Below are positions 1 to 62,857 of a stretch of DNA of 64,000 nucleotides, piece by piece. Within the stretch, counting starts at the first letter, position 1, and every line of letters begins with the position of its first letter. The notes beneath the pieces were generated by a model that did not search any database, had not been told where the DNA came from, and saw only the letters and a list, made by a program, of their open reading frames with translations. The DNA comes from Escherichia phage 241, in the sequence record OR924452. One strand, given 5' to 3'. Position numbers and translations under genes: made by a program.

Positions 1-726
1 GGTGATAGGACAGCCGTTGATCTTTTTCTTTCCGTGCTTGGTCACCCAGTCGTCACGGTTTGACAAGAATGCCGCGCCGTTGCGGTTGGACTCACTACCA
101 TCACGGTCACGCAACATGAACCCAGGGACGTCGATCTGATACATGTTGCCGAATACCATGTTCAGGGCTTCCAGGAAGTTCCAGGCGCTCAGGCGACCGA
201 AGTATTTCCACCCCATAGCCGTGTCCCATAGCTTAACGAATTGATCACTTTGCAGTTTAGTCTCCAACAACGGACGGAAAGCATCCATCTGAGTACGACC
301 AGCCAGCCAATCAATGTAGGACTGAACACACGGGATCATCTTCGATTTGCGATAGCGGCAATCTGTATCGAATCGCATACGATCGAAGTTCAGGTTATAC
401 CAATCACAGAATCGCTTGAACTCTTGTGGTGACTGAGGCGGTACAGGAAACTCACTATAAATCGTCCATGGGCCAATCCCATTATAACAACAGCCCCAAA
501 GGAACGCCATCCAGATCTTGCGCTCGATCTTCTCAAGCTGCGTAATGCCTTCAGTGACTTCAATCGCATAATCCATCAGACGAACTTGTTGGTTGTGTTC
601 TTCCGTATACGACAGCGCCTCCACCCATGCTTTGAGCAGATACATCCGATTCTCTGGCTTACGATAATCGATTGACAAATCAATTGGGTACTTCCATTCA
701 GCCGGAGGCGTATAACCTGTCGGCAT
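1..726 (-). CDS. Hypothetical protein, N-terminal 242 codons only; gene continues past the window start. Possibly a DNA-modification enzyme (speculative).
   Basis: Reverse-strand ATG at 724-726 opens a frame running to position 1 without a stop (translation begins MPTGYTPPAEWKYPIDL). Not in the ORF track because it is truncated. Confidence 0.5.
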   Translation of the reverse strand, partial: MPTGYTPPAEWKYPIDLSIDYRKPENRMYLLKAWVEALSYTEEHNQQVRLMDYAIEVTEGITQLEKIERKIWMAFLWGCCYNGIGPWTIYSEFPVPPQSPQEFKRFCDWYNLNFDRMRFDTDCRYRKSKMIPCVQSYIDWLAGRTQMDAFRPLLETKLQSDQFVKLWDTAMGWKYFGRLSAWNFLEALNMVFGNMYQIDVPGFMLRDRDGSESNRNGAAFLSNRDDWVTKHGKKKINGCPIT

Positions 727-727
727 T

Positions 728-1078
728 TTAGATAGATGCGTCATCCTTCACCTCGGCTTCGAGTTGGATATCTTCAGGGTTTAAAACGGGCTGGCCCAAA
801 GACCAAATTGGAAGGAACCGACGGTCATTGGATACTACCCAGATTTGCTTGGCGGTTTTCGTTTTTTCAGAAATATAATGCTGGGCATTAACCTGAGTCC
901 GTGCCAGCCCAATTTGCCGCCATGCACCGAAATCTTTAGAAGATGGATTGGTGTTCAGCTGGAATTGGGGAATGATTTTATTCTGTTCCGGATAATATCG
1001 GACAGCGTTAATCATATTGGCATCGCCACGATAGTCAACAGCAATAGCAATGGCATTGCGTGGAATAAGAATTTTCAT
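728..1078 (-). CDS. Hypothetical protein
   Basis: Track ORF 728..1102; internal ATG at 1078 is preceded by AAAGGA; tightly packed with neighbours on the same strand. Confidence 0.4.
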   Translation of the reverse strand: MKILIPRNAIAIAVDYRGDANMINAVRYYPEQNKIIPQFQLNTNPSSKDFGAWRQIGLARTQVNAQHYISEKTKTAKQIWVVSNDRRFLPIWSLGQPVLNPEDIQLEAEVKDDASI

Positions 1079-1286: not shown

Positions 1287-2201
1287 CTACACCTTACGCA
1301 TTAGCCCCAGAAGGGACACGGATGAGGTCTTTGGTTCTTCCTTGGCGACGGCCTTGTTTTTAGTTTTGGATGCCTTCTGCGGCTTCTCAGGCACTCTGTG
1401 AGCCAAAGGATCCTGACCGCCGACTTCACGCGTCATCGGATTGGTTTCGCAATAGCCGTAGAAATCTTTCGACATCAGATTGTTAGCGCGGCAAACTGTG
1501 CCAAGCTGATGATAGATAGCATTACCCACCACCCACAACGGGGCGTCGAACGGCAACATAGCCAATTCGCTATCATTCCCAGTCTTGAATTCTTGGGTGT
1601 TCGTAACCGTTTGGTGGTACAAAACGTCTTGCCCACTGTAATCATCCACGGCAACATTCCAGCCCAGCGCCAGCATTTCAGATTTCGACTTCTCGAACTC
1701 CTTGGAGTAAGATTCGTTGCGTGACCAGCCGGAATCCCCCGCTTCTTTACCAGAGCGTCCACGGATGCGGGCATCGTACTGATAGCGATCAGGATATGCA
1801 AAGTACAGCAGCGCCAAAGAATCAATCGGATAGTTCTTGAACATCCATTCAGGACGCCACTTGTCCGACAGCATCAGGGGTTCGCCCTCACACACCAGGG
1901 TATATCCCTGAGCCAGCCAACCCTTGACGAGGTCGCGAGCAATATCCCCAGAGCCTGTGGCAGCATGAATGGCGTCCATAGAGGTCCAAGACGCCAGGCC
2001 GGATTTATTGGACACTGTGTATTGGCCGACGAAGATTAACTTCAGCTCTTCAAATTTCAGGCCGAAGGGGCGCGTCTTATCCCCAACAGTGTACGACAAT
2101 TCAGTCGGCTTCAGCTTAGTGCGGAGCCACTCGATGAACTGTACGACACGAGTGCCTTTACCCGTGCCGCTGGTTCCTTTGATTACAATGATCTTTGCCA
2201 T
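1287..2201 (-). CDS. P-loop kinase; candidate nucleotide or DNA 5-hydroxymethyl-dU kinase (function inferred)
   Basis: N-terminal Walker A IVIKGTSGTGKGT; 304 aa; same-strand cluster with PLP enzyme and polymerase. Confidence 0.7.
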   Translation of the reverse strand: MAKIIVIKGTSGTGKGTRVVQFIEWLRTKLKPTELSYTVGDKTRPFGLKFEELKLIFVGQYTVSNKSGLASWTSMDAIHAATGSGDIARDLVKGWLAQGYTLVCEGEPLMLSDKWRPEWMFKNYPIDSLALLYFAYPDRYQYDARIRGRSGKEAGDSGWSRNESYSKEFEKSKSEMLALGWNVAVDDYSGQDVLYHQTVTNTQEFKTGNDSELAMLPFDAPLWVVGNAIYHQLGTVCRANNLMSKDFYGYCETNPMTREVGGQDPLAHRVPEKPQKASKTKNKAVAKEEPKTSSVSLLGLMRKV

Positions 2202-2515: not shown

Positions 2516-3358
2516 CTATCGGACATATTGATAATGAGAAACCAGGCGATTCACCACTTCATCGAGGTTACGATTCAAGAAGTCAAAGTGGTTTTGGCCT
2601 TCTACATGCTTAATATAAAGCATATCCTCGCAATTCGAAAGATCCAGTTTTTCATAATTGCCCTGAGGGACGAAGATGACGAAGATGTTATTCAGGGCAC
2701 ACGGCTCAACATACTTCGGATTGTCGTCGATCAGGACATCGCCAGCAAGCAGATGCTTTTCATCCGTGCTCACGAACCCATTAATCAACGATTCAAAGTG
2801 ATGGTATATGAACTGACGCTTGCTGCGTTCGTGTTCCGGTTCGCATTTTGTAACTGCCACCATTTCCACTTGCTCAAACTTCTGAAGGAGAGCGGCCTTT
2901 AAATTCGTAAGGAATTCAACAGCCCCTGGCAGTGGTGACATTCTGGAATACAGATCAGGCATACGCCACCAATCCATCGGATCACGTCCTGTTGGCGAAT
3001 CCATCCACTGACCAGCAACGAATACACGGCGCGTTAACCAGGCCGGATGCGCGCGTTCACGCATGAGGATCGCCAGATCACCAGCGTGTGACATATAACA
3101 CTCTTTGGTGATTGGTTGAAATTCAGATGGGTAGTCGTGACATCCCATATTTTCCGCAGCGGCTTTAGAATTAGAAATATTGAACCATTCAACCCACGGC
3201 GATAGGGAATCAACCAGAGTCAAATCCACATCCACCAGAACGCGATATAACCCGCCAATTTTAGAACATGCGTCATACACACCAACGTGATTATTCATCA
3301 GATTTCTCCACATTGTCATAACCCGTTGCGGTGCATTGTTCTTCGGTGCAATCGGCAT
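2516..3358 (-). CDS. Hypothetical protein with HAD-like DxDxT motif (possible phosphatase/nucleotidase); start codon uncertain
   Basis: 280-aa ORF; motif VDVDLTLVD near the N-terminus resembles HAD motif I; alternative starts at about 3319 or 3313. Confidence 0.5.
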   Translation of the reverse strand: MPIAPKNNAPQRVMTMWRNLMNNHVGVYDACSKIGGLYRVLVDVDLTLVDSLSPWVEWFNISNSKAAAENMGCHDYPSEFQPITKECYMSHAGDLAILMRERAHPAWLTRRVFVAGQWMDSPTGRDPMDWWRMPDLYSRMSPLPGAVEFLTNLKAALLQKFEQVEMVAVTKCEPEHERSKRQFIYHHFESLINGFVSTDEKHLLAGDVLIDDNPKYVEPCALNNIFVIFVPQGNYEKLDLSNCEDMLYIKHVEGQNHFDFLNRNLDEVVNRLVSHYQYVR

Positions 3359-3654: not shown

Positions 3655-3692
3655 GGGATAACAGGGGGAATTATATCCCCCTTTGTTTTATT
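3655..3692 (-). terminator. Hairpin with T-tract downstream of the polymerase gene
   Basis: GGGGGATATAATTCCCCC stem-loop followed by a T-rich tract when read on the minus strand. Confidence 0.4.
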
Positions 3693-3695
3693 GAA

Positions 3696-6692
3696 TCAAC
3701 CTTTCTTGCCCATCATGGACAACAGATTAACTCGACGTTTGTGAGACCAACCAACCACGTCTAGAATAGACTGAATCGGCTCTATGAAGGTCTTTTCAAA
3801 CGTGGTGTGGTAATCTACCCACTTATCCAGCCCCAACTCCGGAGGGAGGAAGTCAGGGAAGGCTATGCGGTCGTTCCCCACAGGGTTCCCAGGTTTCAGG
3901 TTAATGATTTTAACCTTATCGCCAGATTCTATCGGCGGGAGACCGAGGTCTTCATGCTTGTCTATCAGCTTGTTGTACATAATACAAGCCTTGGCAGCAA
4001 AGTGTGTGCCACTGATATAATTTCCGTTGCCGTCTAACCACTTCTCAATATCACTAACGCCAGAGGCTTGAGCAATATCATCCACGGTTAATTCCATATA
4101 TTCCTTCTTATAACCCGCGATCAATTCCTGAACTTCAGCCTCCGTCCCCAGAAGAACTTTCTCATAGCATTTAACCAGACGCTCACGACACCATTCCGGC
4201 GTTGTAGATTTACGCGCTTCCAGACCTTTGAATTTTATCTTTGGCTTCTCATACTTGATGCCTTCGCTATCGTATACCGCCATGCAATACATCTTCTTGG
4301 CTCGCCATACAGCAGACGATGCGATGACCTCACGTTCCCAGACCATGCGCTGCTCAAACCCGTTCATGGTATTACATAACAACTGCGCCCATTCGCTGGT
4401 TTTTGGCTGGTAATTCTCTTTGATCCATTGGTCAATGTTATCAACGAGTTTGTGATGGTCCTTTTCTTCAGGCCACAATTGCTTGACCAGGCGTTCAATG
4501 CAAATGTAGTTGGAGTCAGTATCACCCGCGATAACAAAATCCTGACCAGTAGTGCCGCAAAGTTTGTTCAGATAATCATCGGTGTGGCGTTTGTTCCATT
4601 TGTTGATCAGCTGGCCGGAAGTGGTGATTGCTTCAGCGATGTTGATGTTGAAGTATTCTTTAAACCAGACGTTGGAGATTGCGCCATAACCTGCGTTCAT
4701 CAAGATCTTCAGACCTTGTTGTAACGTGTCTTGAGCAACCCCCAGATCTTCCCACTTGTGCATGACTTCAGTCAGGTGATCAAGATCGATGTGCTTGTGT
4801 TCTTCATACCATTCAGGATCGTAGAAACGAGACTTCATGGCGGACTCAAGGTGGAAATCACCTTTAGACATTTCCTTACACCAACCAGCCCATTGCTCAT
4901 ACTTCAGGCCAGTTGCTTTCTCTCCTTTACGGTCAGCGTATATGCCTCGCATAATTTCGGAAAGGAAGGACATCTTCTCATTACTGAAGAACTGAACGTT
5001 CGGGGTAAACGAAACGTTATATCGGCGTAGTGTTTCAAAATGGAATTCGCCCAGCGCGACCAATTCATCAACAACTTGTATGCGTTCATCAATAGCACGC
5101 TGCAACTTGTCGTGAAGATTTTTGAGATGACGACGTTTATTCATCGGCGTTGTCATATCATTCATCGCTTTGGTCAATTCCTCACACATAGCCTCAATAA
5201 TATCACGGCGTGTGTGCTTATCAGAAACGATAGTCTCTGGACCAAGGTTGTATTGCTGTATGATGTGGGGATACAGGGAGTTTAAGTCCTCAGAGAAGAC
5301 CCAGAAATATATCCCTGGTGCAACCTCCATGACATATGCGCCTTCAAAATCTGTTGGTCCATCATAGACGCGCTGGATTTTCGGGACAATCCCCTTCTCA
5401 TAAAGACGATAATAGCACATCGCCAGCCACGGTGCTACAGTGCCGAGACCGTCTTCATAGTTGGATTTAGTGCGATAAGCCAATACAAACATCAGCTGTA
5501 TCAAACGCAGTTTTTGTTCTAAGCGCCACACCAGCTTGACGTCTTTGATACCATATCGCGTATGCTTGCAATAATCATTGAAATAAAGGTCATACAATGA
5601 TTTGCTTTCACTATAATCCAACTTCTTCTCACCGAGTTCACAATAAGCGATCCAGTCCAGTGAGTATTTTTCGCGGGTGGTGTAAGTGTGTTTCTTGTAC
5701 ACTTGCATGTAGTCCATCATTGGACAACCCACAAACTGATAAGACGTGACGTCGCCTTTACGGTCTTTGATGAAACGTTTCTTCAGTTTACCCCAAGGAC
5801 TGAGACGCTGGGCTTCGGATTCACCAAGAACCTGCGTAATTCGTTCAACCAAATAGGGACTATCGAACGTTTCAATGTTCCACCCCGTCCAACCGTCAAA
5901 TTGACGCTGCGACCAGTAGTTAAGGAATGAACGCAACAGATCCTGCTCGGTGACGAACTCCATATACTCAACCTGAAGCCCACCGATTTCAGGATCGTTC
6001 TCATCATACCTGAACTTCGCGCGATCCTTGGAACACGGCATGCCCCAGACATAGAATTTATTGGTATTCATATCTTGGAGCTGTATCAGCGTAATAGGGA
6101 ACGCCGCATTCATGTTCTGTGTGATTTTACCGTTACTGTCAATTATAGGGAATTGGTCAGTCACGTTGTTGGAAATAAAGGAACCAGGGAAATGCTCCCG
6201 AACGAAATCATGGTTGGCCAGTACTTGCTTATGGAAACGACGAACCCGCGCCTCGCTGCCTTTAAACGTGTGAGATTCAATCGTTGCGTGCGGGAATGGA
6301 CCTTTAGTCATTTCTCCGTCACGCCAACCAGCCGAGAACACTTCGATATCCACGTTGGCGATGTGGATATTTGAATAATCAGGTGTGATCATCCCAGGAA
6401 AACTATGGGCGATGAATTGATATGCATAATCCGTTTGTCCATACACCGCAGCCCCTTCGACCTCCTTGTACTCCTCAAGATAGTTGTCAGCGTCGCGCAT
6501 TGATGCAAACTTTTTAGACACCAACGGTTCGTTGAGGAGGCCAATCTTTTCAACTTTGGAATAATCAGCTGTGGGTAAATACAAGGTGGGTTCGAATTTC
6601 TTACGCAACATGCGGCGATTGCCGTTGTCGTCTGCGATACGAATCAGAAGGTCGTTACCCTGTCGGGCAACGTTCGTATAGAAAACAGTCAT
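3696..6692 (-). CDS. gp43: Family B DNA polymerase (T4 gp43-like)
   Basis: Exo I motif NVDIEVF, motif A LNSLYPHII, motif C VIAGDTDSNYI; start reset to the ATG at 6692 (MTVFYTNV) which has a GGAGA RBS; 999 aa. Confidence 0.93.
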   Translation of the reverse strand: MTVFYTNVARQGNDLLIRIADDNGNRRMLRKKFEPTLYLPTADYSKVEKIGLLNEPLVSKKFASMRDADNYLEEYKEVEGAAVYGQTDYAYQFIAHSFPGMITPDYSNIHIANVDIEVFSAGWRDGEMTKGPFPHATIESHTFKGSEARVRRFHKQVLANHDFVREHFPGSFISNNVTDQFPIIDSNGKITQNMNAAFPITLIQLQDMNTNKFYVWGMPCSKDRAKFRYDENDPEIGGLQVEYMEFVTEQDLLRSFLNYWSQRQFDGWTGWNIETFDSPYLVERITQVLGESEAQRLSPWGKLKKRFIKDRKGDVTSYQFVGCPMMDYMQVYKKHTYTTREKYSLDWIAYCELGEKKLDYSESKSLYDLYFNDYCKHTRYGIKDVKLVWRLEQKLRLIQLMFVLAYRTKSNYEDGLGTVAPWLAMCYYRLYEKGIVPKIQRVYDGPTDFEGAYVMEVAPGIYFWVFSEDLNSLYPHIIQQYNLGPETIVSDKHTRRDIIEAMCEELTKAMNDMTTPMNKRRHLKNLHDKLQRAIDERIQVVDELVALGEFHFETLRRYNVSFTPNVQFFSNEKMSFLSEIMRGIYADRKGEKATGLKYEQWAGWCKEMSKGDFHLESAMKSRFYDPEWYEEHKHIDLDHLTEVMHKWEDLGVAQDTLQQGLKILMNAGYGAISNVWFKEYFNINIAEAITTSGQLINKWNKRHTDDYLNKLCGTTGQDFVIAGDTDSNYICIERLVKQLWPEEKDHHKLVDNIDQWIKENYQPKTSEWAQLLCNTMNGFEQRMVWEREVIASSAVWRAKKMYCMAVYDSEGIKYEKPKIKFKGLEARKSTTPEWCRERLVKCYEKVLLGTEAEVQELIAGYKKEYMELTVDDIAQASGVSDIEKWLDGNGNYISGTHFAAKACIMYNKLIDKHEDLGLPPIESGDKVKIINLKPGNPVGNDRIAFPDFLPPELGLDKWVDYHTTFEKTFIEPIQSILDVVGWSHKRRVNLLSMMGKKG

Positions 6693-6771
6693 TGTTTGTC
6701 TCCGGTTAACCGTGCCGTCAGCACGTCCCCGTAATTTAACCGAGGAACGTTCAATGACCAAGGAGTTTAAA

Positions 6772-7344
6772 ATGGCAATCCCCTTTGTGAGCATGATTCC
6801 AGGGGCGCTAAAGCAACTCTGGAATCTTGGGACTGATTTGGTGCAATATAAGCGGGAAATTGTTCAGGCTAAACACGATGTTAAACTGGAGGCAATAAAG
6901 TCTTCTTCAGAATGGGAACTTTCTAAGATTACCGAAGTCGGCGGATCTTGGAAAGATGAATTCTGGACAATCGTTTTGGCTGTTCCCGCTATCCTTGTTA
7001 TGATCGCTCCGGTTGTGGAACTTCTAATGTTCCCCACCGAGTATCATAAAGGGGATTTCATCAAAGCAGTAATTGATGGTATGCAAGCCCTTGAAACAGC
7101 GCCTGATTGGTATACTGCTTCGCTATTGACAGCAATTAGTGCATCATTCGGTATCAAGGGGTACAACCATTACAAAAGCAATAGCCGGAAGGCGCAAGCT
7201 GTGGATGCTCTCAAACAGTTTGGGGTCAAAGTGGTTAACAAAGATCCCACTGTTGTTACTCAGTCGGGTTCTCCCGATCTTGAGTCTGCTCCCCCAGCTG
7301 GGTCTACTGCGACCTCTGGTGCGTGGCCTGATCTGAAGAAATAA
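6772..7344 (+). CDS. Membrane protein (single TM segment)
   Basis: AAGGAG RBS 6 nt before the ATG at 6772; hydrophobic segment FWTIVLAVPAILVMIAPVV; terminator follows. Confidence 0.5.
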   Translation: MAIPFVSMIPGALKQLWNLGTDLVQYKREIVQAKHDVKLEAIKSSSEWELSKITEVGGSWKDEFWTIVLAVPAILVMIAPVVELLMFPTEYHKGDFIKAVIDGMQALETAPDWYTASLLTAISASFGIKGYNHYKSNSRKAQAVDALKQFGVKVVNKDPTVVTQSGSPDLESAPPAGSTATSGAWPDLKK

Positions 7345-7348
7345 GTTC

Positions 7349-7376
7349 AAGGGGAGGAAACTCCCCTTTCTTTTGG
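7349..7376 (+). terminator. Rho-independent terminator
   Basis: GGGGAGGAAACTCCCC hairpin followed by TTTCTTTTGG. Confidence 0.7.
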
Positions 7377-56780: not shown

Positions 56781-57236
56781 ATGAGCGAAACAAAACTTGA
56801 AACGATGAAAACCGAAGATATAATGGCAGAATTGGAACCTCTTATTTCGGTAAATCCTGAAGACATGAACTTAGACCAAATGTCATTGAAAATTGGTCGT
56901 TCGTGGATGACTGTGCAACGCCATTATATTCGTGAAGGAAGATATCTGGAGTATCTAACTGGCAAATTCCGCCAAATAGATCTCTATTTACGCCGATTTT
57001 ATGCAGGGGAATTGCCGCCCAACGTTTATGTTGAACGCCCATTAAAAGTTCGACCCCTGAAATCTGATATAGACGTATGGGTAAAAGCAGATGATGATTA
57101 TATCGAATTGTCTAGCATGCTTCAAGAGCAGAAAGCCAAAGTCAAGTTCATCGAAAGTTGCTTAGATCGTTTGAACAAACTCGGATATGAAGTGAAGAAT
57201 GCTATTGATTGGCGAAAATATTTGGATGGGATGTAA
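56781..57236 (+). CDS. Hypothetical protein
   Basis: 151-aa ORF with AGGGAA RBS. Confidence 0.5.
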   Translation: MSETKLETMKTEDIMAELEPLISVNPEDMNLDQMSLKIGRSWMTVQRHYIREGRYLEYLTGKFRQIDLYLRRFYAGELPPNVYVERPLKVRPLKSDIDVWVKADDDYIELSSMLQEQKAKVKFIESCLDRLNKLGYEVKNAIDWRKYLDGM

Positions 57237-57982
57237 TGGTTTCTCTACAGGCTTTGCGCAAACTTAATGACTTTGAAAATCGTCATCATACATTTCAGCA
57301 ATATTCCTTGCCGTTTAAGGAACTGACTTGCGTAACTACCGAAAATGGTCGTCACTATGTTTCTCCCACTGGAGTCAAACTAACTTCAGTGACGACCATG
57401 TTAGGGCGTACTGGTGACCACACATGGTTAGAAGCCTGGCGGGACAAGTTGGGGCATGAAGCTGCTGATATAGAAACACATCGTTGCGCAGACCGTGGGG
57501 AAAAACTTCATTTGGCTTGTGAGTTGTATCTCAAAAACAGACCAATGAAGGAAGTTCTGGAAGCTGCAGGGGAATACGTGTTTATGTTCAAACAGGTTTT
57601 CCCCTACCTTAACAAAATGAGCAAGATATATGCACAAGAGATTCCATTATATAGCGAAGTCCTGGGTCTTGCTGGTCGTGTTGACCTTATCGGGGTTTAC
57701 GAAGGAATTCCAAGCATAATCGATTTCAAAACATCCAACACCCTGAAAACTCGGAGCATGATAGAAGATTACAGCATTCAACTATGCCTGTACTCAGTCA
57801 TGTTTCAACAGATGTTTAATGTTAAGATCGAACGTTTGGTCAATATTATATCTAATGAAAATTCTCTTGTCCCGACTATAATCGAATTTAATCGAAAAGA
57901 CGTTATTTCTAAAATGTTTGATCGTGTTCGCCTGTATCATAAAATGGATAAAGAACAGAACGGGATCTGGGCGGATCGCTAA
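57236..57982 (+). CDS. PD-(D/E)XK family nuclease (RecB / lambda-exonuclease-like)
   Basis: Motifs GRVDLIGV and IIDFKTS fit the D...(D/E)xK catalytic core; start overlaps the previous stop (TAATG). Confidence 0.55.
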   Translation: MVSLQALRKLNDFENRHHTFQQYSLPFKELTCVTTENGRHYVSPTGVKLTSVTTMLGRTGDHTWLEAWRDKLGHEAADIETHRCADRGEKLHLACELYLKNRPMKEVLEAAGEYVFMFKQVFPYLNKMSKIYAQEIPLYSEVLGLAGRVDLIGVYEGIPSIIDFKTSNTLKTRSMIEDYSIQLCLYSVMFQQMFNVKIERLVNIISNENSLVPTIIEFNRKDVISKMFDRVRLYHKMDKEQNGIWADR

Positions 57983-57985
57983 ATA
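57979..57985 (+). promoter_or_regulatory. Late-promoter-like CTAAATA motif upstream of uvsW
   Basis: GCTAAATACTCCAT about 25 nt before the start codon. Confidence 0.4.
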
Positions 57986-58010
57986 CTCCATAATATTGGG
58001 GGAATTAGTG

Positions 58011-59516
58011 ATGTCAGAAATTCAAATAATCAAAGTTAACGAAGTGCGCATGCGAATCTTGGCGGAGGACTATATCCGCGAAGAACTCAATGATTACTTC
58101 AAATTTGAAGATCCTAATTTCCAACCGAATCCCTTCAGTAAATGGGATGGCGTGGTACGCTTGTTCACAAAGAGTTCTGGTCTTATAGACATCGGTCTGT
58201 TGTTTGAGGTGTTTAAGTTCTGTAAGATGAATGGTTACACCATCAAATTAGATCCCGCCTTAAAATATATCCAAGATATACCAGACGAAGAGATACATAC
58301 ATTTATCAATTCCCTGAACGCTGTTTACCGTGATGAAAACAAGCAATACCAAATCGCAACAGTGCGGGACTATCAATTCGACTCAGTGGCCACAGCAATA
58401 CGCCAATCCAGATGCGTGCTAGAAGCGGCTACGAGCGCGGGTAAATCGTTTATTTTGTACATCATGGCGCGTTACTACAGGCAACGCAGAGAGGCACTGG
58501 AAAGCAATCTCAAGACGTTGATCGTTGTACCTTCCATTCACTTGGTGACTCAGTTGTATGACAACTTTGAGGAATACAGCCATGGCACAAATTGGAATAC
58601 CATGATGAATGTCCAGATGATATGTGAAGGCGCAACAAAGGACATATTCAAGCCCATAGTCATTTCTACATGGCAGGGTATTCAGAATCAGCCCAAAGAA
58701 TGGTTCCATCAATTTGGGGATATTGTTGTCGACGAAGTACACACATCTAAATCTGAAAAGCTATCTTATATCCTGAACAACTGCATTAATGCTGACCAAA
58801 GATTGGGAGTAACCGGAACCCTCGCGAATACAAAGGTTGCAGGGTTGCAGGTCGTTGCCCATTTTGGAGCATACCATAAAATTATTACAGCACGTGATTT
58901 AATAAATCTTGGTTATGCCACAGATATCCATGTCAACATGATTGAAGTCATACATCCCATGGCGGATTGTATAGAAATGCATGGTGCTGAGTATCAAAAG
59001 GAAATAGAATTCCTCATAGCGAATGAACGTCGAAACGAGTTAATAGCCAGAATGGCATTGTCTTTGAAAGGTAACGTGGCCGTTATGTTCGAACGCATTG
59101 ACGCCCATATGATGATTGTTTATGAAATGCTTTCAGCCGTTAAGAAAAACGTATTTGTCATTAACGGCGAAGTTAAGACAGAAGTTCGTAAACAAATTCA
59201 GGCAGCGATGGAAGAGGGTGAAGATATAACACTGCTGGCATCTTATGGGACCATGCAACAGGGAGTGTCGATCAAAAAACTTCATCATTTGATATTGGCA
59301 CACCCGAGTAAATCCTATATCCGTGTCATACAGACTTTAGGGCGTCTCATGCGCCAGCACTCTTCAAAGGATGTCGCCAAGATCTGGGATTTAGTAGACA
59401 ACTTGCGTTACAATGGATTCTCGTACAACCATGCTCTCAGACATTCGCATGAGAGATATAAATTTTATCTTATGGAGCGACACCCTGTACAAATGAAGAA
59501 AGTGTCGCTCCAGTAA
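58011..59516 (+). CDS. uvsW: UvsW-like SF2 DNA helicase
   Basis: Walker A TSAGKS, DExH box VVDEVH, and C-terminal NLHHLILAHP matching T4 UvsW; start at the ATG at 58011 with GGGGGAA RBS. Confidence 0.85.
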   Translation: MSEIQIIKVNEVRMRILAEDYIREELNDYFKFEDPNFQPNPFSKWDGVVRLFTKSSGLIDIGLLFEVFKFCKMNGYTIKLDPALKYIQDIPDEEIHTFINSLNAVYRDENKQYQIATVRDYQFDSVATAIRQSRCVLEAATSAGKSFILYIMARYYRQRREALESNLKTLIVVPSIHLVTQLYDNFEEYSHGTNWNTMMNVQMICEGATKDIFKPIVISTWQGIQNQPKEWFHQFGDIVVDEVHTSKSEKLSYILNNCINADQRLGVTGTLANTKVAGLQVVAHFGAYHKIITARDLINLGYATDIHVNMIEVIHPMADCIEMHGAEYQKEIEFLIANERRNELIARMALSLKGNVAVMFERIDAHMMIVYEMLSAVKKNVFVINGEVKTEVRKQIQAAMEEGEDITLLASYGTMQQGVSIKKLHHLILAHPSKSYIRVIQTLGRLMRQHSSKDVAKIWDLVDNLRYNGFSYNHALRHSHERYKFYLMERHPVQMKKVSLQ

Positions 59517-60197: not shown

Positions 60198-60866
60198 ATG
60201 CAAGAGATCACTCTCTCTGAACGTACTTTACAACTGCTGGCCAACTTTGAAACCATTTGCCCTTCTATCGTTCTGGCACCTGGTAAAAAGCTGCGCACTG
60301 TTAACGACTCCAGCACCGTCATCGCTATCGCTGACATCGACGAAGACTTCCCGTTTGAATTCCCTATTTTGGATCTGACCAAACTTCTGGCCATTCAGCG
60401 TCTGCCTAGTTTCAAAGGCGGTAAAATCGAAATGTCGGAAGATCATATTTTACTGAAAGGTGAAAACTCGCAGCTGCAATTCTGGCGCTCAGCAAAAGAA
60501 TTGACTGTCGTTCCTGCCGACAGCATTGATCTCCCGTCCGTTGAATTCGAAGCGACGGTCACTCCTGAAAAAATGAAAGAGCTGACCCGCGCCTGTTCTA
60601 CTCTGGGACACAAAACTGTTCGTCTGGTTGCCAGCGGCGGTAAAACCCGTCTGGTCGGTACGACTACGACTATCGATAATTCCAACGATTACACCGTTGA
60701 ATTGGGTGAAACTGCTCTGGCTGATTTCGCTATGCCTGTCGACGTTGTTAACCTGAAAATGATCGAAGGCAACTATGTGATCCGCGCCTGTGCTGAAATG
60801 CAGCTTGTTAACTTCCAGTCGGCTGACGGCACCATCAACTACTACGTTGGCATGCAGCTGGATTAA
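60198..60866 (+). CDS. gp45: Sliding clamp (T4 gp45-like)
   Basis: LLANFETICPSIVL and NLKMIEGNYVI align with T4 gp45; 222 aa. Confidence 0.85.
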   Translation: MQEITLSERTLQLLANFETICPSIVLAPGKKLRTVNDSSTVIAIADIDEDFPFEFPILDLTKLLAIQRLPSFKGGKIEMSEDHILLKGENSQLQFWRSAKELTVVPADSIDLPSVEFEATVTPEKMKELTRACSTLGHKTVRLVASGGKTRLVGTTTTIDNSNDYTVELGETALADFAMPVDVVNLKMIEGNYVIRACAEMQLVNFQSADGTINYYVGMQLD

Positions 60867-60946
60867 TCAATATCGCTTCGGCGCTTTATTATCGGTGGCG
60901 GGGTTATTATCCCGCCCTTTGAAATGTTTTATCTAAAGAGGCTGCA

Positions 60947-61936
60947 ATGTCCAACATTACTATCGTTACAGACCAATACGCGTGGGAAAACAAATATCGT
61001 CCTGATAATTTAGATGAGATCGTTCTCCCCTCAGACGTCCGTGCCAAGATCCATGGTTATGTTACCTCTGGCAACGGAAACATCCCCTCTATGCTGTTCT
61101 ACTCCCCTCAGCCTGGTACGGGTAAAACTACTTCTGCTCTGGCCGTGTGCAATGAAATCGGTTGTGTGAAACCTCTGATGATCAACGCATCGCTTGACAA
61201 CAGCATTGATGTGATTCGCGATCGTGTTATTCAATATGCTACTGGCGTCAGCGTTTTCGGTGGTCGGAAAGTCGTCATCCTCGACGAAGTTGAGCGTCTT
61301 TCTATGGCGGCTCAGGAATCATTGAAAGGTATCGTGGAAAAGGTTTCCAAGAACTGCTCGTTTATCCTGACCACCAACGCCAAACAGCGTGTCAATGAGC
61401 CTCTGCGTTCTCGTTGCCGTGAAATTGATTTCATCTGGTCCGAAAAAGAAGCCGACGAAGTTAAACTTCAATTTATGCGTCGTTGTGCCGCTATCCTGAC
61501 AGAAGAAGGCATTCCATACGAAGCTGGTGTTATTGCGTCGATTGTCAAGTCGTATTTCCCCGACAACCGTAAGATTATGGGCACCCTTCAGGATAATGCC
61601 ACCACGTTTGGTAAAATCGATGAACGTGCTTTAGCTCAGGTGAAAGCGGGTGAATTCCAGGCGCTGGTCGATTTCTTAAAGGCCAATGATTGGGCTGGTA
61701 TGAAGCAATGGGTGACCGACAACCAAAACTACATTACAGAGGACTTCTACTCTCGGTTTTTCCATTTCTGTGTCCCACAGAACAAAGAGAAGACTCCTTT
61801 GATTCAGAACGAATCTATCCCAGATTTGGTCTGCGTTTGTGGTCAGTCACAGATTGAACATCGTTCAGTTGGAGACGTCTGGTTACACGGCGTTTACTTC
61901 CTGACCAACGTCATGCTCAACATCAAGTGGAAGTGA
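60947..61936 (+). CDS. gp44: Clamp loader large subunit (T4 gp44-like AAA+ ATPase)
   Basis: Walker A PQPGTGKTT, Walker B ILDEVERL, SRC motif RSRC. Confidence 0.9.
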   Translation: MSNITIVTDQYAWENKYRPDNLDEIVLPSDVRAKIHGYVTSGNGNIPSMLFYSPQPGTGKTTSALAVCNEIGCVKPLMINASLDNSIDVIRDRVIQYATGVSVFGGRKVVILDEVERLSMAAQESLKGIVEKVSKNCSFILTTNAKQRVNEPLRSRCREIDFIWSEKEADEVKLQFMRRCAAILTEEGIPYEAGVIASIVKSYFPDNRKIMGTLQDNATTFGKIDERALAQVKAGEFQALVDFLKANDWAGMKQWVTDNQNYITEDFYSRFFHFCVPQNKEKTPLIQNESIPDLVCVCGQSQIEHRSVGDVWLHGVYFLTNVMLNIKWK

Positions 61937-61940
61937 TATT

Positions 61941-62363
61941 ATGGCCGCTCCGTCACTGTTCGATTACCTGGGTGCTCTGAACAGCACCAAAGAGAATCTG
62001 TTGTTGACCGAAGACCCCGAAATCAGAAAGGCATTTGATCCTTTCATGACTCGGCGCGGCCTTGCCCAGAGTAAAGACACGTTGGTGGTTGCAGAACGAA
62101 TGAACCACTTTCATGCCATTACTCCTTGGATGCAATGGAACCTTGCGTTTCATAGCATTCCGGCGAAACGCCGTTATGGCAAATGGTCTAAGAAAGGAGC
62201 CATGGACCCTGATGTAAAATTGATTTCTGAGTATTACTACATCAGTCCTGAAAAGGCTTCTGAGTATGTTCGATTCCTGCCGAAAGAAGTCCTGGCTGAA
62301 ATCAAGGCGAAGGTCGAACGTTCCAACAGCAACGAAAAAGCTAAACCGCGCAAGGCTAAGTAA
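61941..62363 (+). CDS. gp62: Clamp loader small subunit (T4 gp62-like, by synteny)
   Basis: 140-aa ORF coupled to the gp44 stop, in the T4-conserved 45-44-62-regA order. Confidence 0.65.
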   Translation: MAAPSLFDYLGALNSTKENLLLTEDPEIRKAFDPFMTRRGLAQSKDTLVVAERMNHFHAITPWMQWNLAFHSIPAKRRYGKWSKKGAMDPDVKLISEYYYISPEKASEYVRFLPKEVLAEIKAKVERSNSNEKAKPRKAK

Positions 62364-62392
62364 TTCAAATTATTGTTAAAGGGGTACGAGTC

Positions 62393-62857
62393 ATGGCGCG
62401 TAATACGCTGGACATCTTGAAACTTTCAGCTGTTAACGATGAGGCCAGCATCGTTGATTGTATGGTTGAAGTTCAATTGAACCAAGATAAACCAGGAATT
62501 TTCCTGGGTATCAAGGAAACGCTGAGCCGCATCGGGGTGAACACTCGTCAAGAGCCGAATACCCTGTACCAAACATGTCATATTCTGCATAAATTTGGCA
62601 GATATCACATCGTGCACTTCAAGCATCTTTTCATGCTGGATGGGCATTACAACGGCTTTACGCGTGAAGATGTCCTGCGTATGAATCGGATTATTCGGCT
62701 TTTGGAGCAGTGGAATATGGTTAAAATACTGCATCCGGAACAGATTACCGAAGTTGCTGATATGTCTCGAATCAAAGTTGTAAAACATGACCAAGTTTCT
62801 GATTGGAAACTGGTTCCAAAATATACCATCCGCCCGAGTCGGGCGAAAAGCGAATAA
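62393..62857 (+). CDS. regA: Translational repressor RegA
   Basis: LYQTCHILHKFGRYHIVHFKHLFMLDG and WKLVPKYTI align with T4 RegA. Confidence 0.85.
   Translation: MARNTLDILKLSAVNDEASIVDCMVEVQLNQDKPGIFLGIKETLSRIGVNTRQEPNTLYQTCHILHKFGRYHIVHFKHLFMLDGHYNGFTREDVLRMNRIIRLLEQWNMVKILHPEQITEVADMSRIKVVKHDQVSDWKLVPKYTIRPSRAKSE

Follow-up and report, generated by a model that had tools for sequence, protein, structure and literature searches.

We analyzed the DNA polymerase gene located on the minus strand at positions 3696–6692 of a 64,000-nucleotide stretch of Escherichia phage 241 (record OR924452), hereafter referred to as the window. The gene very likely encodes the ordinary replicative DNA polymerase of a Vi01-like Kuttervirus, the gene layout and the two insertions in the protein being standard for this lineage. 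Nothing contradicts the identification of the gene, and the gene, its length, and its position were already known, since they are those of Salmonella phage Vi01 and hundreds of sequenced relatives. Nucleotide-level matches to the polymerase gene were found in 246 phage records, in 232 of which the match spans 80% or more of the query. Identity was 99.4%–99.5% to Vi01, Escherichia phage Sa157lw, and others (99.4% with 100% coverage for Vi01), and the protein is 100% identical in amino acid (aa) sequence to the Vi01 polymerase. The clamp gene cluster at the other end of the window was 99.0%–99.2% identical to those of Vi01 and phage Matapan (99.0% with 100% coverage for Vi01). The window is collinear with the Matapan annotation from position 1 to about 8.3 kb, a span that takes in the polymerase gene; farther along, there is an offset of about 210 bp between the coordinates. 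The gene order is typical of Kuttervirus: polymerase, tRNAs, baseplate, several tailspikes, and then UvsY-exonuclease-helicase-45-44-62-regA-MazG. The family genes expected at the window end are present, in agreement with the core-gene list of PMC10892097. By sequence comparison, the window is assigned to a Vi01-like Kuttervirus genome (Ackermannviridae, Cvivirinae). The Vi01 polymerase (Vi01_190, YP_004327561.1) and its Kuttervirus orthologues (CBA120 orf237, PhiSH19, and Matapan gp21) have the same length of 998 aa, the same neighbors, and the same distance to the clamp cluster, with no difference of substance from the polymerase of the window.

The minus-strand open reading frame (ORF) spans positions 6794 to 3696. 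The start of the polymerase gene was placed at the ATG at 6692, because GGAG lies 8 nt upstream, the N-terminus aligns with that of RB69 gp43, and the same start is annotated in related records. The Shine-Dalgarno sequence GGAG was read directly at 6700–6703 (minus strand), the position at which a ribosome-binding site is annotated in phage Matapan, and the N-terminus MTVFYTNV pairs from residue 1 with MKEFYLTV of RB69. The longer ORF from the in-frame ATG at 6794, corresponding to 1,032 aa, was rejected: its upstream 34 codons overlap the divergent gene at 6754–7344 and are supported by no homologue. This ATG is an ORF-calling trap, and the extension (6693–6794, minus strand) is not a real N-terminal part of the protein. 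The product comprises 998 aa; the length of 999 aa given in the original prediction counted the stop codon, but the protein is indeed about 100 aa longer than T4 gp43 (898 aa; RB69 gp43 has 903 aa).

The protein matched the Pfam families DNA_pol_B_exo1 (PF03104, E = 1.3e-15) and DNA_pol_B (PF00136, E = 2.9e-14), and a HMMER sequence comparison matched it to RB69 gp43 at E = 2.7e-114. Motif conservation was judged in a family alignment of 89 sequences, and all the catalytic motifs proved to be intact, as had been claimed. The exonuclease motifs were complete: Exo I (D115/E117 in NVDIEVF, 6336–6356, minus strand, invariant in the 89 homologues), Exo II (N272...F276-D277), and Exo III (Y380...D384). 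The same was true of the polymerase motifs, namely, motif A (D469-LNSLYP within SEDLNSLYPH, including Y474; 5265–5294, minus strand), motif B (K662-ILMN-AGYG within GLKILMNAGYGAI, including N666, Y669, and G670; 4677–4715, minus strand), motif C (D724-T-D726-S within IAGDTDSN; 4509–4532, minus strand), and the KKxY motif K800-M-Y802. The exonuclease and A/B/C catalytic residues were invariant in this alignment, except for N272, which was nearly invariant. The C-terminal tail KRRVNLLSMMGKKG (3699–3740, minus strand), ending in VNLLSMMGKKG, aligns with the tails of RB69 (ASLFDMFDF) and T4 (ASLDFLFG); by analogy with these two enzymes, it probably binds the gp45 clamp.

The AlphaFold2 model of the protein (predicted local distance difference test, pLDDT, 91.6; predicted template modeling score, pTM, 0.86) contained the N-terminal, exonuclease, palm, fingers, and thumb domains of the five-domain fold. 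RB69 gp43 accounted for all of the top 50 fold matches in PDB, with E values down to 9.5e-67 and template modeling (TM) scores of 0.81–0.90 normalized by target length. The RB69 and T4 enzymes (PDB 1IG9, 1IH7, 9EA3, and others) have the same domain order, fold, Exo I–III and A/B/C motifs, long T4-type fingertip, and aligned tail. They differ in having only ~26%–30% identity to the window protein, lacking both insertions, carrying ~21 extra aa of their own, and being encoded next to regA. The polymerase is a family B enzyme of the T4 gp43 type with a full proofreading exonuclease and polymerase active site.

The extra length had been taken as probably an insertion domain. Alignment to T4 and RB69 gp43 placed it in concentrated segments rather than in uniformly small, scattered indels, but at two separate sites, after Exo I and after motif A, and not in one domain. 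Indels were placed with HMMER (against RB69) and by indel bookkeeping on a MAFFT alignment that combined twelve homologues with T4 and RB69; a BLASTP alignment to T4 was dropped for this purpose because its N-terminal half was scrambled. HMMER aligned the protein to RB69 in three collinear blocks with two unaligned gaps. Residues specific to the window protein were 121–129/130 (+9/10) and 137–193 (+57) following Exo I, 513–558 (+46) following motif A, and a few 3-residue blocks. Approximately 21 residues were specific to T4/RB69, and the net excess was +95 relative to RB69 and +100 relative to T4.

Insertion 1 (residues 121–193; 6114–6332, minus strand), delimited by the alignment bookkeeping, is located in the exonuclease domain between the Exo I strand (111–118) and the next core strand (200–207). 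It was modeled as a beta-hairpin (122–129), a 21-residue helix (147–167), and a long coil, with a pLDDT of 80–93 for its secondary structure. The insertion 2 module (residues 492–559; 5016–5219, minus strand), delimited by alignment and modeled secondary structure, lies in the palm between the helix following motif A and the beta-hairpin (560–570) leading into the fingers. It was modeled as a helical hairpin (492–511 and 517–532) plus two short helices. Modeled alone, this module folded confidently (pLDDT 90.8) and gave no match among PDB folds (best E = 0.9); it is predicted to be a generic helical hairpin. Pfam scans of both insertion segments at E values up to 5 returned only sub-threshold noise. 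The part of PMC3061061 that cites Petrov et al. documents the gp43 fingertip as a hotspot for length variation and gene splitting. Both insertion sites differ from the fingertip, which in the window protein resembles those of T4 and RB69 in the alignment. An analogy between insertion 2 and natural gp43 splits, which assumed that these are located in the palm nearby, was dropped, since the splits lie in the fingertip (PMC3061061).

Both insertions were present in every homologue of 961–1,035 aa, comprising enterobacterial Ackermannviridae, Vibrio phages with 46%–50% identity, and metagenomic proteins with 39%–42% identity, and both were missing from relatives of 830–918 aa. In the Vibrio Ackermann-like phages (D506, K489, VAP7, YC, and 207E48.1) and the metagenomic proteins P0029–P0037, which together span 39%–50% identity, insertion 1 is ~16 aa shorter than in the window protein because the segment VTDQFPIIDSNGKITQ is missing. 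The insertions are the least conserved segments of the protein. Among enterobacterial relatives, identity was 53% for insertion 1 and 59% for insertion 2 versus 70%–82% for the core domains; relative to Vibrio-type homologues, the corresponding values were 26%, 37%, and 41%–59%. Such low conservation fits peripheral elaborations under weaker constraint. The two insertions would be lineage-specific peripheral additions to an RB69-like fold that probably arose before the enterobacterial and Vibrio branches split and appear to evolve faster than the catalytic core. Most likely, they are structural decorations or protein-contact surfaces, not new catalytic domains.

The T4-type clamp cluster was found at the opposite end of the window. 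The genes there were assigned by PHROG profiles, with E values from 3e-42 to 3e-108 for gp45, gp44, gp62, and regA. All are on the plus strand: the gp45 sliding clamp (60198–60866; phrog_223, E = 4.8e-65), the large clamp loader subunit gp44 (60947–61936; phrog_168, E = 3.3e-108), the small clamp loader subunit gp62 (61941–62363; phrog_225, E = 3.3e-42), and the translational repressor regA (62393–62857; phrog_242, E = 4.2e-53). They are preceded by genes for UvsY (56781–57236), an exonuclease (57209–57982), and a helicase (57918–59516), also on the plus strand and assigned by PHROG. The 45-44-62-regA block (60198–62857) is complete and shares the T4 order, but differs from the T4 cluster in that the slot after regA, held by gene 43 in T4, is occupied by another gene. 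This 288-codon ORF, originally described as unrelated, is indeed not the polymerase; however, it is not anonymous. It encodes a conserved MazG-like nucleoside triphosphate (NTP) pyrophosphohydrolase of 287 aa (62874–63737, plus strand; phrog_2144, E = 2.2e-132; start codon checked). A Pfam search of this protein gave no match. The gene is kept after regA across Kuttervirus, Taipeivirus, Limestonevirus, and Agtrevirus, and many relatives annotate it likewise. The enzyme may help to shape the deoxynucleoside triphosphate pool and could possibly clear dTTP/dUTP for the phage pathway based on 5-hydroxymethyldeoxyuridine (5-hmdU).

Gene 43 was not found directly downstream of regA on the same strand in the window. 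Both gp45 and regA are on the strand opposite to that of the polymerase, at distances of 53.5 and 55.7 kb, respectively, from its start. Relative to T4, the polymerase is unlinked from regA, as had been noted (with a distance of about 56 kb). The order 45-44-62-regA-43 was confirmed for T4 and RB69 in their own records. The layout of the window is, however, normal for its lineage, an outcome that the original prediction had itself named as refuting it. Spacing between the polymerase and the clamp cluster, measured within the same record, was 52.9 kb in Vi01, 53.3 kb in Matapan, 53.6 kb in AR2819, 55.0 kb in Magnus (Taipeivirus), 53.0 kb across the record ends in AV101 (Agtrevirus), and ~51–52 kb in LIMEstone1 (Limestonevirus), with the two loci on opposite strands in each case. 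A spacing of 51–55 kb and opposite orientation therefore recur in four genera: Kuttervirus, Taipeivirus, Agtrevirus, and Limestonevirus. In the more distant Vibrio phage D506, whose polymerase has 49.6% aa identity, no clamp genes were found within 20 kb on either side of the polymerase. The local order in D506 is baseplate wedge, tRNAs, polymerase, "guanylate kinase," thymidylate synthase, UvsX, helicase, rIIA, and rIIB, and the polymerase/"guanylate kinase"/thymidylate synthase neighborhood is common to D506 and the lineage of the window. Conserved gene order has been reported for Vi01-like phages, and the published list follows the order of the window: NTP pyrophosphohydrolase, RegA, clamp genes, ..., pyridoxal phosphate (PLP) enzyme, DNA polymerase (PMC10892097). 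In the table for phage PhiSH19 published in 2011, the polymerase (998 aa) is listed at 145.4 kb, and regA-62-44-45 occupies 89.9–92.6 kb (PMC3220722). Separation from the clamp genes is the norm for the lineage and has been in print since 2011.

Adjacency of gene 43 and regA in the T4 style is common among phages with gp43-type polymerases but not universal. The distance between the two genes was 0.1–8.5 kb in T4, RB69, cyanophage P-HM1, P0044, and 15 of 23 metagenomic loci encoding short polymerases. The layouts differed in detail: 45-44-62-regA-(6.3 kb)-43 in the short-polymerase P0044, 43-45-44-62-regA in the short-polymerase P0066, and 45-44-...-62-regA-(2.1 kb)-43-uvsX-41 in P-HM1. The contig of P0038 encodes a 910-aa polymerase without insertion 1 and with a partial insertion 2. 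Genes for a helicase, UvsY, and a PD-(D/E)XK exonuclease precede the polymerase gene, directly after which the contig stops; in the window, those genes adjoin gp45 upstream. This arrangement hints at an intermediate gene order. T4 gp43 regulates its own translation and is not known to be a target of RegA; function would therefore not require that genes 43 and regA be physically adjacent.

The polymerase gene is instead surrounded by genes of thymidine hypermodification, whose characteristic set in Kuttervirus (HMUDK family, ADDT/aGPT-PPlase, and PLP enzyme) was found in the window. Downstream on the same strand are genes for DUF7292, an NT5C-type 5'(3')-deoxyribonucleotidase (2516–3298, minus strand; PF06941, E = 5.8e-8; annotated likewise in Matapan, Magnus, and LIMEstone1), DUF7254, the 5-hmdU DNA kinase 2 (HMUD2) located 1.5 kb downstream of the polymerase (1287–2201, minus strand; PF18747, E = 2e-168), and an amino acid:DNA transferase (ADDT) truncated at the edge of the window (1–744, minus strand; PF18724, E = 2.9e-50). 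The hypermodification pathway is also represented 3.3 kb upstream of the polymerase by the gene for a PLP-dependent enzyme (10013–11206, minus strand); this enzyme is annotated as a PLP enzyme in Matapan, and its match to Pfam PALP was weak (E = 2e-7) and below the gathering score. The HMUD2 orthologue (1287–2201) is called "guanylate kinase" in Vi01, D506, and the table of PMC10892097, although Pfam identifies it as HMUD2; the public label is misleading. By ORF-number correspondence, HMUD2, ADDT, and the PLP enzyme are gp243, gp247, and gp226 of phage ViI, which together with gp67 and gp160 reconstitute the synthesis of 5-(2-aminoethoxy)methyldeoxyuridine (5-NeOmdU) (PMC5889632). Lee et al. 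(2018) noted that hypermodification genes are often close to the phage DNA polymerase gene (PMC5889632). The polymerase of the window would incorporate the 5-hmdUTP made by the phage pathway.

The linkage was surveyed by tblastn over all fetched loci, which included 9 loci encoding long polymerases and 23 encoding short ones in which the upstream flank spanned 8 kb or more. Since a scan of IMG/VR yielded only one long-polymerase locus in 80, the long-polymerase sample was drawn from phages in GenBank and from three metagenomic contigs. HMUD2 was found 1.0–2.2 kb downstream of the polymerase in all nine long-polymerase loci, including the metagenomic P0029 and P0035, and clamp genes were found in the flanks of none of the nine. 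The neighborhoods of D506, P0029, and P0035 contained the polymerase-HMUD2-ADDT block, and clamp genes were absent from the flanking stretches that were read. Among the 23 short-polymerase loci, regA or genes of the clamp loader lay no more than 10 kb away in 15, and one locus had a hypermodification match. This sole case, a T4-like locus (L047, IMGVR_UViG_3300007618_000003), carries 44-62-regA 6.4–7.7 kb upstream of gene 43 and an ADDT-like tblastn match 7.1 kb downstream. Loss of the T4 adjacency in the long-polymerase clade thus coincides with linkage to hypermodification genes. Since all long-polymerase cases form one clade, this coincidence cannot separate function from shared ancestry.

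Several explanations were weighed against that of an ordinary polymerase with a lineage-standard layout. The insertions could be adaptations to thymidine hypermodification, either providing docking sites that bring 5-hmdU DNA kinases and amino acid:DNA transferases to nascent DNA or tuning the enzyme for 5-hmdUTP and hypermodified (5-NeOmdU) templates. In ViI-like phages, Vibrio phage 1.255.O included, ~40% of T is replaced by 5-NeOmdU, the modification acts on DNA "coincident with or immediately after" replication, and its genes lie near that of the polymerase (PMC5889632). HMUD2 and ADDT are encoded immediately downstream in all nine loci carrying both insertions, even at 41%–42% identity, compared with the single hypermodification match among the 23 short-polymerase loci. 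Under this explanation, the relocation of gene 43 would reflect a coupling to hypermodification, which would account for the polymerase-HMUD2-ADDT block in every long-polymerase lineage sampled. Nevertheless, phylogeny fully confounds the co-occurrence, no other part of the protein evolves as fast as the insertions, and T4 handles glucosylated hydroxymethylcytosine DNA without any such insertions. We consider adaptation to hypermodification unlikely. Assigning the insertions to an ordinary Kuttervirus polymerase as peripheral elaborations also has points against it: the decorative or contact role of the insertions is one that we infer, the use of the distant gp45 and gp44/62 by the polymerase is suggested by homology of the sequences, and the retention of both insertions down to ~40% identity argues against dispensability.

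An origin of the extra segments from mobile elements (inteins, intron ORFs, or homing-endonuclease ORFs), left as in-frame remnants within gene 43, is very improbable. This gene is a known target, being interrupted by intron-borne homing endonucleases in LIMEstone1, Ds16CZ, and PH4, and the fingertip is where gp43 genes of the T4 type are split (PMC3061061). However, neither insertion gave a match above threshold to intein, HNH, GIY-YIG, or LAGLIDADG families, and the insertion sites differ from the intron positions of LIMEstone1. Moreover, the segments are short (~46–68 aa), fold confidently as parts of the enzyme, and are conserved in frame to ~40% identity. A recent rearrangement or an assembly artefact of this genome alone has next to no probability as the cause of the separation of gene 43 from regA. 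Nothing but the contrast with T4 speaks for it, and it is refuted by the conserved spacing, since genomes from four genera, each sequenced independently, show the same layout, as does the table published in 2011.

The polymerase gene is one open, uninterrupted frame in the window. In LIMEstone1 (locus L010, 3799–8841), it is split by the intron-borne homing endonucleases I-LimII and I-LimIII, and split polymerase genes consisting of two or three ORFs are also present in Ds16CZ, PH4, and Vibrio phage 1.255.O; the first break is close to motif A, and the other is close to the fingertip. The 5' untranslated region of the polymerase gene contains a hairpin, ACGTGCTGACGGCACGG (6710–6726, minus strand), ~7 nt upstream of the GGAG Shine-Dalgarno sequence. 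It is unchanged, save for one loop base, in Taipeivirus Magnus, Agtrevirus AV101, and LIMEstone1, in which the flanking bases vary; in Vibrio phage D506, it was not alignable. We take this hairpin to resemble the translational operator of T4/RB69 gp43, which is likewise a hairpin beside the Shine-Dalgarno sequence. The folding z-score of the whole leader was just −2.1. The LIMEstone1 annotation places a putative late promoter just upstream. G+C-rich palindromic, terminator-like hairpins were found at 3663–3682, just past the polymerase stop codon, and at 7349–7368, after the divergent gene (6754–7344); the latter is annotated as a terminator in Matapan.

In the Ackermannviridae, the T4-like replication genes are split into blocks. 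The genes 45-44-62-regA are kept together and followed by the MazG-like pyrophosphatase, and gene 43 heads a separate block in the opposite orientation, with NT5C, HMUD2, and ADDT, and with the PLP enzyme upstream. Despite the 53 kb between the loci, homology suggests that gp45 and gp44/62 serve as the clamp and loader of the polymerase. The useful points for this family are that the extra length of the polymerase maps to two defined sites distinct from the gp43 fingertip hotspot and that the polymerase-HMUD2-ADDT linkage reaches relatives at 40% identity. If the insertions couple the polymerase to the hypermodification enzymes, they would provide a mechanism for DNA modification "coincident with replication."

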